Translations under genes and position numbers: made by a program | Notes under the pieces: model-generated | What the model saw: only the letters and a program-made list of their open reading frames with translations | Databases searched by the model: none | What the model was told of the DNA's origin: nothing | Part shown: positions 1,092 to 4,531 of the stretch, one piece after another | Layout of the letters: every line of letters starts with the position of its first letter | Numbering within the stretch: the first letter of the stretch is position 1 | From: Candidatus Gastranaerophilales bacterium | GTDB taxonomy: Bacteria > Cyanobacteriota > Vampirovibrionia > Gastranaerophilales > Gastranaerophilaceae | Reading direction: 5' to 3' | Assembly (NCBI GenBank): GCA_944325025.1 | Contig: CALUYN010000005.1 | Coordinates: 14,478 to 78,477 of the forward strand | DNA length: 64,000 bases

Positions 1092-1235
1092 TGGTGGGCA
1101 GGGGTGGATTTCTTGCTCGTTCGCGTTTAACAGGTCTACGGTTGTCGTCTGCAATGTCTGTGACATTTTGCCGCCAAGCCTTCGCCTTCAGCTCACTCGC
1201 GCTCGAACCTTTAACAAAGCTTTCGCTTTGTGTGG
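1092..1235 (-). repeat. tRNA-appended element E1 plus duplicated 3' end of tRNA-Tyr
   Basis: 1095-1110 is identical to tRNA-Tyr 3' end 1275-1290, extended by CCA (1092-1094). 1111-1235 is about 90% identical by eye to 3733-3864. Confidence 0.85.
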
Positions 1236-1274
1236 TTCTCATCCATTTTACCTGCAAATTACAAATAAAAAACC

Positions 1275-1357
1275 TGGGCAGGGGTGGATTCGAACCACCG
1301 TAGTCTCGCGACGGCAGATTTACAGTCTGCTCCCTTTAGCCACTCGGGCACCTACCC
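1275..1357 (-). tRNA. tRNA-Tyr(GTA)
   Basis: Cloverleaf: acceptor GGGTAGG/CCTGCCC, anticodon loop CTGTAAA, long variable arm, GGTTCGAATCC; no encoded CCA. Confidence 0.95.
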
Positions 1358-1375
1358 TTATTAAATTTTCAAAAA

Positions 1376-1447
1376 TGCCTTTGACGGGATTTGAACCCGT
1401 GGCCTCTCCCTTACCAAGGGAGTGCGCTACCCCTGCGCCACAAAGGC
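1376..1447 (-). tRNA. tRNA-Thr(GGT)
   Basis: Acceptor GCCTTTG/CAAAGGC, anticodon loop TTGGTAA, T-arm GGTTCAAATCC. Confidence 0.93.
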
Positions 1448-1464
1448 TCAAATGTTTTTCTTTG

Positions 1465-1543
1465 TACCAAGGGAGTGTCTGCTACCCTCCCTCCACTCAA
1501 CAACTCTTAGTTGTTTTGTAGAGCCTTGCCACAAAGGTCAAAT
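1465..1543 (-). pseudogene. Degenerate 5'-half copy of tRNA-Thr(GGT) with a hairpin insertion in the D-arm
   Basis: TACCAAGGGAGTG (1465-1477) and GCCACAAAGG (1528-1537) repeat the neighbouring tRNA; an extra ~40 nt lies between them. Confidence 0.65.
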
Positions 1544-1564
1544 ACTTTATTCTTCATTAAAATT

Positions 1565-1636
1565 AGCCGGCAATAGGAATCGAACCTACAACCTACGGTT
1601 TACAAAACCGTTGCTCTACCATTGAGCTATGCCGGC
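1565..1636 (-). tRNA. tRNA-Thr(TGT)
   Basis: Acceptor GCCGGCA/TGCCGGC, D-arm AGCTCAATGGTAGAGC, anticodon loop TTTGTAA, GGTTCGATTCC. Confidence 0.95.
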
Positions 1637-1739
1637 GTCAGTCACATGTCTTATTCTATTAAGAAAATATTTTAATGTCAAGAGTTTTATTTCTGTTTGA
1701 TTTATAATAGTTTTATAAGTTTAAATTAAGGAAGGAAAA

Positions 1740-2081
1740 ATGATTAGATTTGTTGCCCCTATTTTGTTATTAACAATATCAAATGTATTCATGACATTTG
1801 CATGGTATGGACATCTTAAACATAGATCAGCAGCTTTATGGACTGTTATTTTGATTAGTTGGGGAATAGCTTTCTTTGAATACTGTTTTCAGGTGCCCGC
1901 AAACAGAATTGGAAGCTATGTTTATTCTGCAGCTCAATTAAAGACAATTCAGGAAATAATTACACTTGTTGTGTTTAGTTTCTTTTCAGTATTGTATTTG
2001 AAAGAAGAATTCAAGTGGAATTATCTTGTCGGCTTCATTTTCATAATATTTGCAGCATTTTTTATATTTAAAAAGTGGTAG
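1740..2081 (+). CDS. Small DMT-family membrane protein (DUF486-like)
   Basis: 113 aa with 4 hydrophobic segments; motifs SNVFMTFAWYGHLK, IAFFEYCFQVPANRIG, QLKTIQEIITL. Confidence 0.8.
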   Translation: MIRFVAPILLLTISNVFMTFAWYGHLKHRSAALWTVILISWGIAFFEYCFQVPANRIGSYVYSAAQLKTIQEIITLVVFSFFSVLYLKEEFKWNYLVGFIFIIFAAFFIFKKW

Positions 2082-2085
2082 TTTA

Positions 2086-3693
2086 TTACTTTTCAAAAAT
2101 GAAAACTCTGTAGTATTTCAATTTTACGCCGCTTTTTATTTTCAAGTATTTCTGACAGAGAATAAATGCATCTGCATTCATCTTTGATAAACTTCCTGTC
2201 ATTACCGGAAGTTTTTTGTATTCTTCTAGCGATTTTAAAGGATAAGCGTTATAATTTTCATCCCAAATATAGAAAATTCTGTCGCCAGTGTTCATTGGTT
2301 CAATGACGCGGGAAAGAAAATCTTTCTCAAATTCTGGGGAAAGGCTGTTAATGCTCAGGACATAATCTTTATACTTTTCATATTTATCCTGCTTTGAAGA
2401 ATTCATTGCGTAAGGCTCGTGTACAAAATCCTGCAGCAAACTGAATTTCCTTCCATTGAAATTTATGTATTTATCAAAGTCATTTTTTCTTAGTGCTAGG
2501 ATAATAGTATCATTATCTTTTATATTGTTTGAATTTAATACATTTGCTGTCGGTTTTTCGCCTAAATCCCTGTATCCTCTTACTGCACTTATTGGCGAAG
2601 CTAAAAGATAAAATACGTTTATTATAAGCATATAAGTTATTATTATTTTTATAGTTATGCTTTTTAATTCTGATAGGCCTATACTTACAAGAAGCAGTAA
2701 AGGCGGAATTGCAAGTATGGTATATCTGGTAAGCATTCTCAATCCGCTGTTCATGCATAAAATAGTTTCAAAAATTAAAAATAACAAAGGTAAAACAAGC
2801 AGCAAATAATGTTTTTTGTCTATCCTTACACCTTTATAAATCCCGTAAAATGCAATCCCGACAGGAATATAAATAAATAATATCTGTGTAAAGCCAAGTG
2901 TGGGGATGTAAACTTGCGGATTGTTATAAATTCCTATTAAATACGGTGTGAAATAATTTTGAATTAAAACAAATGTTGTAAAAATATTGCTTGTAAATAT
3001 CCATGCTGCAGCTTCGTATTTGTGCATGTGTGTAAGTATGTATATAGCAAATGGAGAAATTACTCCAATTAATATAAGATTAGCAAGCAAAAATTTCTTT
3101 AAAGTCTGTTTATTTTTCCATAAGATATAAGCTAAGGTGGCAATCCCTTGAGCAATAACGTATAAGACTCCAATTGTAAATGTGTATACAATTGCAGCAT
3201 TTGTGATTATGTATCCCGCATAATCTGTATTTTTGTTGTGTTTTAAAATTCTGGCTATAAAGTATAGTGAAACGGTTGCAAACATTGAAAGAAAAATATA
3301 AAATTTAACTTCCTGTGAATAAAATATGAGGGTTGCATTTATAGCAGTGAGGAATGCAAAAATATTCCCTGTTTTCTCATTTTTTATTTCTTTACCTGTG
3401 AAAAATGCAGCAACAACATTAAGTACTCCTGCCAGGACAGAAAACAACCTAATAGTAATATCACCGTTTCCGAATATTTTTATCCACAAAGCTAGCATTA
3501 ATTGGTAAAGCGGAAAATGAACATCTGCATCAACTGCAGCTTTTATAATATCTAAAGGGCCTCCTGCAATTGTCTGGTTATACATGACCATTTCGTTGTG
3601 CCAGAAACCTGCAGGTTTATCAATGAACAGTACCCTTAAAATTATTGCCAGTACAATAACTAAACCCAAAATAATATAATCTCTCTTCTTCAT
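2086..3693 (-). CDS. GT-C fold membrane glycosyltransferase (GT39/PMT-like)
   Basis: Multi-TM; FWHNE, DVHFPLY, IRLFS and YSQEVKFY motifs. Likely start MKKRDY at 3693; the ORF-track extension runs through element E2. Confidence 0.8.
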   Translation of the reverse strand: MKKRDYIILGLVIVLAIILRVLFIDKPAGFWHNEMVMYNQTIAGGPLDIIKAAVDADVHFPLYQLMLALWIKIFGNGDITIRLFSVLAGVLNVVAAFFTGKEIKNEKTGNIFAFLTAINATLIFYSQEVKFYIFLSMFATVSLYFIARILKHNKNTDYAGYIITNAAIVYTFTIGVLYVIAQGIATLAYILWKNKQTLKKFLLANLILIGVISPFAIYILTHMHKYEAAAWIFTSNIFTTFVLIQNYFTPYLIGIYNNPQVYIPTLGFTQILFIYIPVGIAFYGIYKGVRIDKKHYLLLVLPLLFLIFETILCMNSGLRMLTRYTILAIPPLLLLVSIGLSELKSITIKIIITYMLIINVFYLLASPISAVRGYRDLGEKPTANVLNSNNIKDNDTIILALRKNDFDKYINFNGRKFSLLQDFVHEPYAMNSSKQDKYEKYKDYVLSINSLSPEFEKDFLSRVIEPMNTGDRIFYIWDENYNAYPLKSLEEYKKLPVMTGSLSKMNADAFILCQKYLKIKSGVKLKYYRVFIFEK

Positions 3694-3715
3694 ATATCCC
3701 CTTAATCCTGTTAAA

Positions 3716-3864
3716 AGCGGAAGACGGGACTGTCTTGCTCGTTCGCATTTAACAGGTCTACGGCTGCCGTCTGCAATGTCTTTGACATTTTGCCGCCAAA
3801 CCTCCGCCTTCAGCTCACTCGCGCTCAAACCAATGACAAAGCTTTGCTTTGTGGTTCTCGTCCC
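3716..3864 (-). repeat. tRNA-appended element E2 plus duplicated 3' end of tRNA-Gly(CCC)
   Basis: AGCGGAAGACGGGACT (3716-3731) is identical to 3895-3910; the body is homologous to E1. Confidence 0.85.
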
Positions 3865-3894
3865 TTTTCAACATATTTGTTATTCACTAATAAT

Positions 3895-3966
3895 AGCGGA
3901 AGACGGGACTCGAACCCGCGACGTCAACCTTGGGAAGGTTGCATTCTACCACTGAATTACTTCCGC
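3895..3966 (-). tRNA. tRNA-Gly(CCC)
   Basis: Acceptor GCGGAAG/CTTCCGC, U discriminator, anticodon loop TTCCCAA, GGTTCGAGTCC. Confidence 0.95.
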
Positions 3967-4055
3967 GTTTGTCTTTATTTTATTACAAAAAAATTTTTAT
4001 ACAAATTTTTAATATATCAATTAATTAAAAAGACCCGCCATAAGTTTTTTTTATT

Positions 4056-4218
4056 AGCGGGAGACGAGGCTCGTCTTGGATTTGCTCCACGCTCACGGAG
4101 ACTCACCTTTAAGCCTGCGGCTTAGCCGGCTCGTTCCGTTCGCTATCCGGATTTATTCGCTTCGCTCATGCCATCCGTCCGCAAATCCGCCGAACTGCGC
4201 AATTGGCGAGTTCCTGCC
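4056..4218 (-). repeat. tRNA-appended element E4 (second family) plus duplicated 3' end of tRNA-Gly(GCC)
   Basis: AGCGGGAGACGAGGCTCG (4056-4073) is identical to 4460-4477; GC-rich body bounded by inverted repeat GGATTTGC/GCAAATCC. Confidence 0.8.
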
Positions 4219-4230
4219 ATTATCTCTGTC

Positions 4231-4267
4231 CATAAAAAAGCCCCACCTATGGTGGAGCTTCTTTATG
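4231..4267 (-). terminator. Terminator-like hairpin between E3 and E4
   Basis: CATAAAAAAGCCCCACC-TAT-GGTGGAGCTTCTTTATG; the mismatches become G-U pairs on the minus strand, which has a U tract. Confidence 0.65.
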
Positions 4268-4268
4268 G

Positions 4269-4404
4269 AGCGGGAGACGAGGCTCGTGTCTTGCTCGGTC
4301 GCGTGTAACGGCATTCCGCGTTTTGCTAATGTGATTTTATCTAAATCGCAAAACGCTACAGCCTCAGCTCCCTCGCGCAACTCGCAAAAAAGCTTCATCA
4401 AGCC
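4269..4404 (-). repeat. tRNA-appended element E3 plus duplicated 3' end of tRNA-Gly(GCC)
   Basis: 4269-4286 is identical to 4460-4477. Shares TCTTGCTCGnTCGCGTnTAAC and CAGCTCnCTCGCGC with E1/E2; different internal hairpin. Confidence 0.8.
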
Positions 4405-4417
4405 ACTATCTCAACAA

Positions 4418-4458
4418 ATTAAAAGACCGTTAGAACTAAAGTCCTACGGTCTTTTAAT
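4418..4458 (-). terminator. Hairpin/terminator immediately 3' of tRNA-Gly(GCC)
   Basis: 13-bp perfect inverted repeat ATTAAAAGACCGT/ACGGTCTTTTAAT. Confidence 0.7.
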
Positions 4459-4459
4459 A

Positions 4460-4531
4460 AGCGGGAGACGAGGCTCGAACTCGCGACATCCTCCTTGGCA
4501 AGGAGGCATTCTACCACTGAATTACCCCCGC
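4460..4531 (-). tRNA. tRNA-Gly(GCC)
   Basis: Acceptor GCGGGGG/CTCCCGC, anticodon loop TTGCCAA, T-arm GCGAGTTCGAGCCTCGT; no encoded CCA. Confidence 0.95.

Follow-up and report, generated by a model that had tools for sequence, protein, structure and literature searches.

The window analyzed here, a stretch of 64,000 nucleotides (nt) from Candidatus Gastranaerophilales bacterium (NCBI GenBank assembly GCA_944325025.1, contig CALUYN010000005.1, positions 14,478 to 78,477 of the forward strand; C5:14478-78477 in our contig numbering), contains four short units, E1 to E4, which lie behind tRNA genes on the same strand and each end in a second copy of the 3' end of their host tRNA. On balance, we favor the interpretation that these units specify tRNA-trailer RNAs of the RtT type known from Escherichia coli, with a tRNA-identical 3' end clamped by the unit itself, and that they are not guide-directed transposons. 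The 43-contig assembly (G000) to which the window belongs represents a bacterium of the chicken gut and comprises 1.76 Mb at 35% GC. An earlier note, made from the sequence of the window, had offered two readings, namely a non-autonomous element that recognizes tRNA genes by guide-like base pairing and a structured RNA co-transcribed with the tRNA. The second is the better supported one (sense-strand bias, RNA contigs, and the E. coli RNA RttR), whereas the first, which the note preferred, found no positive support: the antisense segment that suggested it pairs with the unit's own 3' tail.

The five tRNA genes of this region, Tyr, two Thr, Gly(CCC), and Gly(GCC), were located with ARAGORN and Rfam and are all encoded on the minus strand. 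A base-by-base check placed them and the four units where the earlier note had put them. Each unit consists, in this order, of a spacer, an antisense arm, a small hairpin or loop, the 5' half of the T-arm, an insert (90–117 nt across E1–E4), and a tRNA copy that runs from nt 56–58 to the discriminator nt 73:

1275..1357, minus strand: tRNA-Tyr(GTA), host of E1, without encoded CCA (ARAGORN; Rfam tRNA 56.3 bits)
1256..1274, minus strand: E1 spacer, T-rich, directly after nt 73
1234..1255, minus strand: E1 antisense arm, GCAGG-UAAAAU-GGAU-GA-GAACC
1210..1233, minus strand: E1 mini-hairpin, capping helix P_a (minimum free energy (MFE) fold)
1204..1209, minus strand: E1 T-arm 5' half, GGTTCG (nt 52–57)
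1111..1203, minus strand: E1 cargo, a class-A rod of 93 nt (nhmmer 82.9 bits; covariance model R1 97.8 bits)
1092..1110, minus strand: copy of tRNA-Tyr nt 58–73 plus CCA, the ancestral gene end according to empty sites in relatives
1053-1079, minus strand: ancestral terminator behind the Tyr copy
3895..3966, minus strand: tRNA-Gly(CCC), host of E2 (ARAGORN, Rfam)
3716..3894, minus strand: unit E2 including its spacer, with arm 3853-3864 (GGGAC-GA-GAACC), hairpin 3832-3852, GGTTTG 3826-3831, class-A cargo 3733-3825, and copy of nt 58–73 at 3716-3731
4460..4531, minus strand: tRNA-Gly(GCC), host of the stacked units E3 and E4 (ARAGORN, Rfam)
4269..4459, minus strand: unit E3, with terminator-like hairpin 4421-4455, degenerate arm 4392-4412, GCGAGTT 4379-4385, divergent class-A cargo 4289-4378, and copy of nt 56–73 at 4269-4286, then CCA
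4056..4268, minus strand: unit E4, with CCA, hairpin 4234-4264, arm 4206-4226 (GAGAUAAUGGC-AG-GAACUCGC), GCGCAGTTCG at 4191-4200, class-B cargo 4074-4190, and copy of nt 56–73 at 4056-4073

According to the earlier note, E1 and E2 were about 90% identical and yet differed in their clamp bases; we measured 89% identity over 139 nt, with the difference as described. The arm that it had read in E3 is present but degenerate. Screening of window positions 800-5000 with 4227 Rfam models, including self-cleaving ribozymes (E<=10), identified no family except tRNA, all remaining matches having E>0.05 and scores far below the gathering scores. A hammerhead ribozyme was compared with the junction by eye and rejected, as neither strand lengths nor conserved bases fit.

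The arm had previously been described as antisense to the T-arm. This stands for the part concerned, but the arm is longer and forms an imperfect antisense of approximately nt 52–70, complementing the 3' strand of the T-stem and part of the acceptor 3' strand as well (in the Arg-TCT module, for example, UGGAU-A-GCGAU faces AUCGC-AUCCA). In E1, its partners are nt 66–70 and 59–62 of the downstream copy, and GGUUC (nt 52–56). An arm fits the T-arm of its own unit more closely than it fits those belonging to other modules (0/10,000 permutations), and the mean energy of the duplex between arm and tail is -10.8 kcal/mol for the own tail vs. -7.8 kcal/mol for other tails, the own tail being the better partner in 31 of 37 cases. 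For 30 modules, the arm, T-arm 5' half, and tail were aligned, with helix P_b defined as the 5' half of the arm paired to nt 59–65 and helix P_a as its 3' half paired to nt 49–56. Both helices covary, in keeping with the earlier picture of a T-arm split by the insert and clamped by two helices: their covariation score is 0.267 vs. 0.138 ± 0.015 for shuffled alignments (0/500), and 69.7% of the cells are paired, vs. at most 46.8% in slid registers. Within each helix, the signal derives from the four or five innermost pairs; nt 52, for instance, forms CG with the arm in 15, UA in 6, and GC in 5 modules. The check for covariation between the 5' clamp and the adjacent T-arm that the earlier note had proposed is thus positive. 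Its central mismatch of 2 nt is not a mismatch bubble, because the GA lies antiparallel to G57-A58, where tandem G.A/A.G pairs are possible judging by this geometry, and in T-loops with A57 (UUCAAxU) the arm carries UU and is fully complementary. In MFE folding, 30 of 56 modules formed the clamp to the tail, with at least 8 bp in P_b, and 21 of 56 formed P_a as well as P_b with at least 4 bp each; in E1 the outer clamp forms and P_a does not. Compared with shuffled sequences, the E1 fold has a z-score of -2.47 in the sense and -0.61 in the antisense orientation.

The same architecture is found in E. coli K-12. There, the 178-bp repeat of the tyrT-tyrV locus reads tRNA-Tyr...CCA, a spacer, GGGGAAGGAU-GA-GAAGC, a short loop, AAGGUUCGA, a GC-rich rod of approximately 70 nt, and AAUCCUUCCCCCACCACCA, and GGGGAAGGAU-GA-GAAGC clamps GAAGG-UUCGAAU-CCUUC. 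RtT (RF00391) and the window units thus agree in the order of spacer, arm, short loop, T-arm 5' half, GC-rich rod, and copy (nt 58–76 in RtT), and are alike down to GAUGAGAA. As in the window units, the RtT arm is antisense to nt 59–68 and 52–56 and places GA opposite G57-A58 (GGAUGAGAA); in both, an outer helix joins the 5' segment (..GGAU), which is followed by GAGAAC, to the 3' half of the T-arm in the copy (AUCC..). Both immediately follow a tRNA gene, on its strand and often in tandem, with a 3' copy that starts in the T-loop, and both vary in presence or absence between strains. The RF00391 model matches four K-12 copies at 133–137 bits and its consensus structure includes the clamp helix, which is also present in the MFE fold of RtT, so that the earlier note was wrong in assuming that the tyrT repeat has no target-matched antisense segment. 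It had also held that membership in a described family with a known explanation would speak against its idea: the architecture has indeed been described, an accepted explanation has not. RtT and RttR have been in the E. coli literature since 1978–1991 with no accepted function or origin, and the mode of action of RtT was termed unknown in a mobilome study (bioRxiv 10.1101/2024.07.17.603846). In the literature that could be searched, the antisense clamp of RtT to the T-arm of its host had not been pointed out, and nothing on Gastranaerophilales repeats, small dispersed repeats, or non-autonomous elements targeting T-loops described the present units.

RttR, the annotated small RNA of this locus, extends from 8 nt after the CCA of tyrV to the CCA of the first copy. 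The annotation in E. coli thus fits release as a discrete RNA that ends at the partial copy; the RNA contigs available for the present units carry no end or strand information. RtT-family RNAs also adjoin Asn and Lys tRNA genes in Actinobacillus, where they were detected by Northern blotting (PMC4986893), and were gained and lost between Erwinia strains (PMC7542023). Another E. coli strain possesses tyrT and tyrV without any RtT unit, and a plasmid search with RttR retrieved only enterobacterial copies of the chromosomal type. The open reading frame (ORF) of the "protamine-like protein" Tpr (K-12 locus, positions 1288-1377 of our extract L150) lies wholly within the rod and clamp of the first RtT unit, and its Arg-rich reading frame may reflect rod composition.

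Units of this kind extend well beyond the window. In this genome, the final 16 nt or more of ten of the 40 tRNA genes recur without mismatch 140–180 nt downstream, each copy starting in the T-loop; ARAGORN adds one extra base on tRNA-Asp and tRNA-Glu, and if this base is set aside the exact copies are 15 to 17 nt. Shorter, mismatched, or truncated units behind three or four further genes raise the number of hosts to about 13 of 40, and the search across the genome and its relatives suggested in the earlier note bears out its pattern, which by far exceeds what chance would produce. The hosts are Gly-TCC, Tyr, Gly-CCC, Gly-GCC (two units), Asp (two), Leu-TAG (two identical units), Lys-TTT, Lys-CTT, Met, Arg-TCT, and Glu-CTC, with degenerate or truncated forms behind Ser-GGA and Arg-CCG. 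When 117 further Gastranaerophilales contigs were added to this genome, 47 of the 95 genes for tRNA or transfer-messenger RNA (tmRNA) with enough downstream sequence had a downstream copy of their 3' end, a sample that is biased because the contigs were picked for the class-A insert. These copies start at nt 58 (26 of 46), nt 56 (11), nt 57 (3), or nt 60–61 (6), and their identity stops exactly at nt 73 in 18 of 46 cases. Together with relatives read directly, the contigs reveal hosts of at least 22 anticodon species plus tmRNA; the units measure 140–220 nt, with rods of 90–120 nt in this genome, and each has the direction of its tRNA or tmRNA gene. Several contigs of this genome terminate inside tRNA genes, for which the units are the likely reason. 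In two places in this genome (C29:22540-22790 and C24:12150-12400), class-A modules have tails matching the 3' end of tmRNA (..CTCCCGCCGTCTCCACCA). These modules are found 1.4 kb behind the tmRNA gene or on a contig other than that of the gene, and as a second, degenerate tmRNA-like end stands in front of each, an insertion between gene and module is probable. Taken together, the occurrence on more than 22 tRNAs and tmRNA in a phylum distant from that of E. coli, the covarying clamps, and the swappable rods indicate that units of this type are defined by their architecture (clamp, split T-arm, and tRNA 3' end) rather than by the sequence known from E. coli.

We propose that the RNA of a unit would fold into a three-way junction. 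In helix P_a, the antisense arm would pair with the short copy of the T-arm 5' half and in helix P_b, past the tandem G.A/A.G step, the same arm would pair with the second tRNA copy from nt 58 onward, with the GC-rich rod branching off between G57 and A58. The clamp would thereby supply a trailer RNA whose base-paired 3' end is identical to that of the tRNA and might be trimmed and protected like the tRNA's own; trimming of this sort is suggested by the annotation of RttR, whose 3' terminus is the CCA of the partial copy. Stable hairpins of the same kind as the rods stand directly on stop codons of highly expressed genes in this lineage. In the DNA, recombination across the direct repeats of 16–18 nt (T-loop to nt 73) could add, remove, and multiply units, for which no dedicated enzyme would be needed; the newest unit would adjoin the gene and the ancestral end (CCA plus terminator) would be shifted downstream. 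Covariation between arm and tRNA might be upheld in two ways at once, with selection preserving the clamp and the adjacent gene converting the copy. Of this model, the architecture and its agreement with that of RtT, the covariation, the structure of the sense strand, and the indels of whole units are established, whereas processing of the 3' end in this organism, the route of recombination, and the cellular role are inferred. Mimicry of a tRNA minihelix as substrate of RNases P and Z was considered as well and rejected: it fits the units loosely, since the clamp often stops at nt 64–70, and the 5' strand complements the 3' strand instead of copying nt 1–7.

The units are likely transcribed. 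The evidence consists of assembled metatranscriptome contigs, among them, from one RNA run, an exact contig over 3725-3924 that spans E2 and the 3' part of tRNA-Gly(CCC) and an exact contig over E4 with a depth of 14.7 vs. 2.4–3.6 for contigs of neighboring genes. In a second RNA run, a contig leading from the tRNA to E4 crosses a spacer hairpin. Over E4, contigs of the RNA runs cover 4097-4286 and 4088-4268.

Several points weigh against the trailer RNA interpretation. The RNA contigs lack strand and end information and could stem from DNA carry-over, and about half of the spacers hold a terminator-like hairpin with a T-run between tRNA and unit, which should limit read-through. Selection and gene conversion are a slow route to matched arms on more than 22 tRNAs, and units as similar as E1 and E2 (89% identity) that differ at the target-specific bases look like a case of retargeting. 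To our knowledge, no function has been established even for RtT. Finally, the RtT model has no match in window positions 800-5000 or in the whole genome (E<=10; gathering threshold 45 bits), and the class-A cargo model R1 yields only fragments with E>=0.17 on the E. coli locus, so that no rod homology is detectable. As both models fail crosswise, the resemblance could be convergent rather than due to common descent; we therefore file the units as working like RtT and not as members of RF00391.

The retargeting point applies in particular to guide-directed insertion, in which the arm would choose the site by pairing with the T-arm of a tRNA gene or transcript, much as IS110 selects its targets with a bridge RNA and IS200/IS605-TnpB with a guide. 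The arm extends to either side of the insertion point, its bases covary with those of the target, E1 and E2 differ in just the bases that their targets require, and the target-identical segment of 16–18 nt behind the cargo resembles the guide of an omega RNA. All this would be expected of a guide, but the arm is already satisfied intramolecularly and, unlike in a bridge RNA, both of its halves complement one strand; the left flanks of free cargos show no constant target motif, and the same design in E. coli K-12 is a stable chromosomal repeat. Moreover, the necessary enzymes are lacking. The IS110 DEDD/RuvC-like recombinase (PF01548) has 0 matches in this genome and in 22 of 25 genus genomes (G000 counted), TnpB (PF07282) has no significant match in this genome or in 23 of 25 genus genomes, and no reverse transcriptase (RT; PF00078) was found in this genome or in G003 and G014, which together with G015 are the three genomes richest in BLAST matches to E1. 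We consider guide-directed insertion very improbable.

The earlier note had seen no candidate enzyme in the window and had suggested looking for a co-occurring one, which did not emerge: RT, IS110, TnpB, and the Y1 transposases associated with repetitive extragenic palindromes (REPs), termed RAYTs, do not track the units. This genome has two Y1/RAYT genes (C13:11409-11750 and C7:73364-73729), each flanked by its own, different REPs (GTAGGGTGGGATAAACG.. and GTAGGTTGGGG..), and such genes were not found in G003, G014, and G015; an origin of the units from REP/RAYT systems was rejected for the two genes having REPs of their own. A REP of the second type also occurs downstream of the tRNA-Met module on C18. 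Likewise, IS110, TnpB, and an IS200-like target motif were dismissed, the two enzymes not having been found in this genome and the left flanks of the copies being variable where a fixed tetra- or pentanucleotide would be expected.

Gain and loss of whole units is directly visible. In relatives without E1, tRNA-Tyr ends in ...CCCA-CCA followed by a terminator, and the identical end follows the partial copy in the window. A contig from the metatranscriptome of another sample joins the 3' part of tRNA-Gly(GCC) directly to E4, skipping exactly the 191 nt of E3 within the 18-nt repeat. Both empty and filled alleles, a comparison that the earlier note had recommended, therefore exist for tRNA-Tyr in relatives and for E3 in another strain. 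Identical tandem units are present at Leu-TAG, Arg-TCT, and Ser-CGA, and some arrays finish in a partial unit (spacer, arm, part of the hairpin) followed by unrelated DNA. In the contig sample, CCA is encoded by the copy alone seven times and by the gene alone once. The start of the copies at nt 58 had made an RNA origin of this CCA attractive (tRNA-primed or template-jumping reverse transcription, with a stop at m1A58), but empty tRNA-Tyr sites encode CCA and the terminator, so that the CCA on some copies is ancestral, was pushed downstream, and is no mark of an RNA intermediate; with no RT found in G000, G003, or G014, this origin was ruled out, and the units do not qualify as retroelements such as retrons or group II introns. 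A target-site duplication around free cargos was also sought and no consistent repeat appeared, and a GTTC target as in IS91 is not present at free copies. In the relative G002 (L130, positions 1850-1980), tRNA-Tyr with its own CCA and terminator is followed by a degenerate arm (GAGATGAGAAG), GTGGTTC, and the first ~25 nt of an E3-like rod without a 3' copy; this remnant is a decayed or truncated unit. A different kind of duplication lies between tRNA-Thr(TGT) and tRNA-Thr(GGT) in the window (1448-1565, minus strand), where a partial 5' copy of tRNA-Thr(GGT), consisting of nt 1–10, an insert of ~40 nt, and nt 18–36, immediately precedes the intact gene. This segment is polymorphic, as contigs of four other runs (two DNA, two RNA) have an unrelated 18–23 nt in place of these 116 nt.

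Such indels could also be produced by a non-autonomous, site-specifically integrating micro-element. It would be a circle or single strand of ~170–200 nt, composed of the copy of nt 58–73, spacer, arm, hairpin, T-arm 5' half, and cargo, and moved in trans by an Xer-like recombinase or a phage or island integrase with strand exchange between G57 and A58; its folded three-way junction would mimic a duplex T-arm, similar to the hairpins of integron attC or CTX-phage attP. The clean filled and empty sites, the replacement 3' end beside the gene with the ancestral CCA and terminator displaced, the position of the newest unit of a stack next to the gene, the arrays finishing in a partial unit, as multimeric intermediates would, and the boundary sharply fixed in the T-loop are all in line with integration, as is the raised exonuclease-resistant signal over tyrT-rttR in E. 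coli mobilome sequencing (bioRxiv 10.1101/2024.07.17.603846). The direct repeats by themselves, however, explain the indels, the right end of identity varies from nt 70 to >250, the tolerance of G.U and the tandem G.A pairs indicate RNA, no candidate enzyme co-occurs with the units, and the sole integrase island examined uses the anticodon loop and a 41-nt repeat and just displaces existing units. We therefore regard such a micro-element as unlikely. A variant would be programmable insertion without an enzyme of its own: in a single-stranded or circular intermediate of ~180 nt, the arm and split T-arm would imitate the target, a housekeeping recombinase or repair pathway would insert it between G57 and A58 of the matching tRNA gene, and RtT would be a domesticated relic. 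This appears quite unlikely to us.

The units themselves contain neither ORF nor integrase; the only integrase seen, a tyrosine integrase, belongs to a separate island of 12.6 kb (C21:13979-27000) that adjoins a tRNA-Arg(TCT) gene. Its site is the anticodon loop, and it merely displaces older units: its far end bears a 41-nt 3' part of tRNA-Arg from the anticodon loop onward, then older class-B units and a truncated unit. Islands in tRNA genes are classically recognized by direct repeats from T-loop to 3' end, and with a real island on C21 one could view the units as scars, the partial copy being attR and the unit an island arm left by internal deletion. Scars would hardly keep one size and order across more than 22 tRNAs and 24 genera, possess a covarying antisense arm, have cargos in common with stop-codon sites, or occur as identical tandem copies, and integrase remnants were never found in units, which makes this origin extremely improbable.

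The class-A insert of E1 and E2 (~93 nt) has 21 copies in this genome and 131 in the sampled contigs. Its rod has three parts, namely a closing helix (GCGAGCGAGC/GCGAGCGAGC) in which Watson-Crick pairs covary (CG 54, UA 40, and GC 8 at one position in pair counts on 107 distinct sequences) and tandem G.A steps are fixed, an invariant internal loop region, and a variable hairpin with many compensatory changes. In an alignment of 30 sequences, 14 of 20 pairs change on both sides. At variable pairs, G.U was counted 76 times vs. 23 for A.C, besides one invariant G.U; this excess identifies the tRNA-sense strand as the folded one, with the wobble tolerance of RNA. Of 301 genomes sampled from the phylum, 110 have matches to the rod covariance model; these belong without exception to one family (24 genera), and no match lies outside it.

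Half of the full-length class-A copies are not adjacent to tRNAs. Free cargos abut the end of a sense ORF in 25 cases and of an antisense ORF in one, and in 17 of the 25 stop-abutting copies the stop codon is formed by T plus the first AG of the rod. Other free rods lie inside the loop of another repeat (between GGAGCGT and GCCGCTCC) or right behind a class-B rod; the left flanks of the copies vary (TTCG, GTTC, AAAT, TCAT, GCGT), and rod classes A–D are interchangeable among units. The repeat with rods in its loop is a tandem repeat of ~65 nt that starts with the hairpin GGAGCGTAGCCGCTCC, and this composite is present in near-identical copies at at least five loci (C7:5900-6250, C25:1-250, C13:25066, C32:13097, C2:36411 and 128683). 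Stop codons that bear the class-A rod elsewhere often carry a different hairpin family in this genome: at C33:5228-5400, C9:54690-54850, C1:98580-98740, and C7:2590-2750, genes for ribosomal and other proteins end in TAG or TAA and are immediately followed by long hairpins built of tandem units of 7–8 nt (GGAAGGC, GTGAAGA, and others), where other species have the class-A rod. This is a stop-codon-abutting hairpin system with rapid turnover of families. The Tyr, Gly-CCC, and Lys-CTT modules of this genome have in common a compensatory A-U pair at a position that is G-C in other sampled genomes and in other rods of this genome, from which it follows that rods are exchanged or converted between modules.

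Such mobility of the rods raises the question of whether the units are by-products, i.e., whether mobile hairpins settle on stop codons and within loops, be it the T-loop or that of the GGAGCGTAGCCGCTCC repeat, and the inverted tRNA end is a functionless fold-back duplication. Rods within the loop of another repeat or stacked behind class-B rods, the genome-specific A-U pair of three modules, which implies that cargos move or convert between them, and different hairpin families at the same stop-codon sites in different species all agree with this. It would leave unexplained why the contig sample yielded no inverted tRNA end devoid of a cargo, why compensatory changes preserve the clamp over many genera, and why E. 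coli has the same architecture around an unrelated rod; we thus judge it improbable.

The units offer dozens of natural "compensatory mutants" for the role of the clamp, be it in 3'-end definition, stability, sensing of tRNA status, or recombination. They would also account for assembly breaks at tRNA genes in these genomes, and they expose an RNA rod that is spread throughout a family, keeps its tandem G.A pairs, and occupies stop codons of genes for ribosomal and other proteins.

Several known systems share individual traits with the units. Tyrosine-integrase islands and prophages likewise have a direct repeat from a tRNA loop to the 3' end, supply a replacement 3' end, displace the original, and stack at one gene; the units differ in their size of 140–220 nt, their lack of an integrase, their antisense arm, and a boundary at nt 56–58 instead of a full 7-nt overlap. 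Like REPs and BIMEs, REPINs with RAYTs, cyanobacterial small dispersed repeats, and STRR heptamers, the rods are short, GC-rich, structured, intergenic and located just after genes, lineage-specific, and nested, but they are strictly sense-oriented and often supply the TAG stop, and REPs have no tRNA-matched clamp. IS110 bridge RNAs and IS200/IS605 guide or omega RNAs are also structured, ~150 nt long, and matched by complementarity or identity to the sequences flanking an insertion point, whereas here the genome has no recombinase or TnpB, the complement of a single strand is satisfied within the unit, and free copies have no fixed target motif. Integron attC and CTX-phage attP are imperfect hairpins that imitate a duplex target, with unpaired bases at the crossover; the units have no integron integrase context, the evidence favors RNA over single-stranded DNA, and no free form was observed. 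In plant mitochondrial t-elements and mascRNA, a tRNA-derived end defines or protects the terminus of another RNA. The whole fold is tRNA-like there, whereas the units retain the 3' strand only, paired to the antisense arm and not to the 5' acceptor strand. RtT of E. coli shares the complete architecture, and the differences concern its deployment: in this non-photosynthetic relative of cyanobacteria, the units serve at least 22 tRNA species and tmRNA, most copies lack CCA because most genes here encode none, many spacers contain a terminator-like hairpin, and the rods (classes A–D) are interchangeable and sit on stop codons as well.

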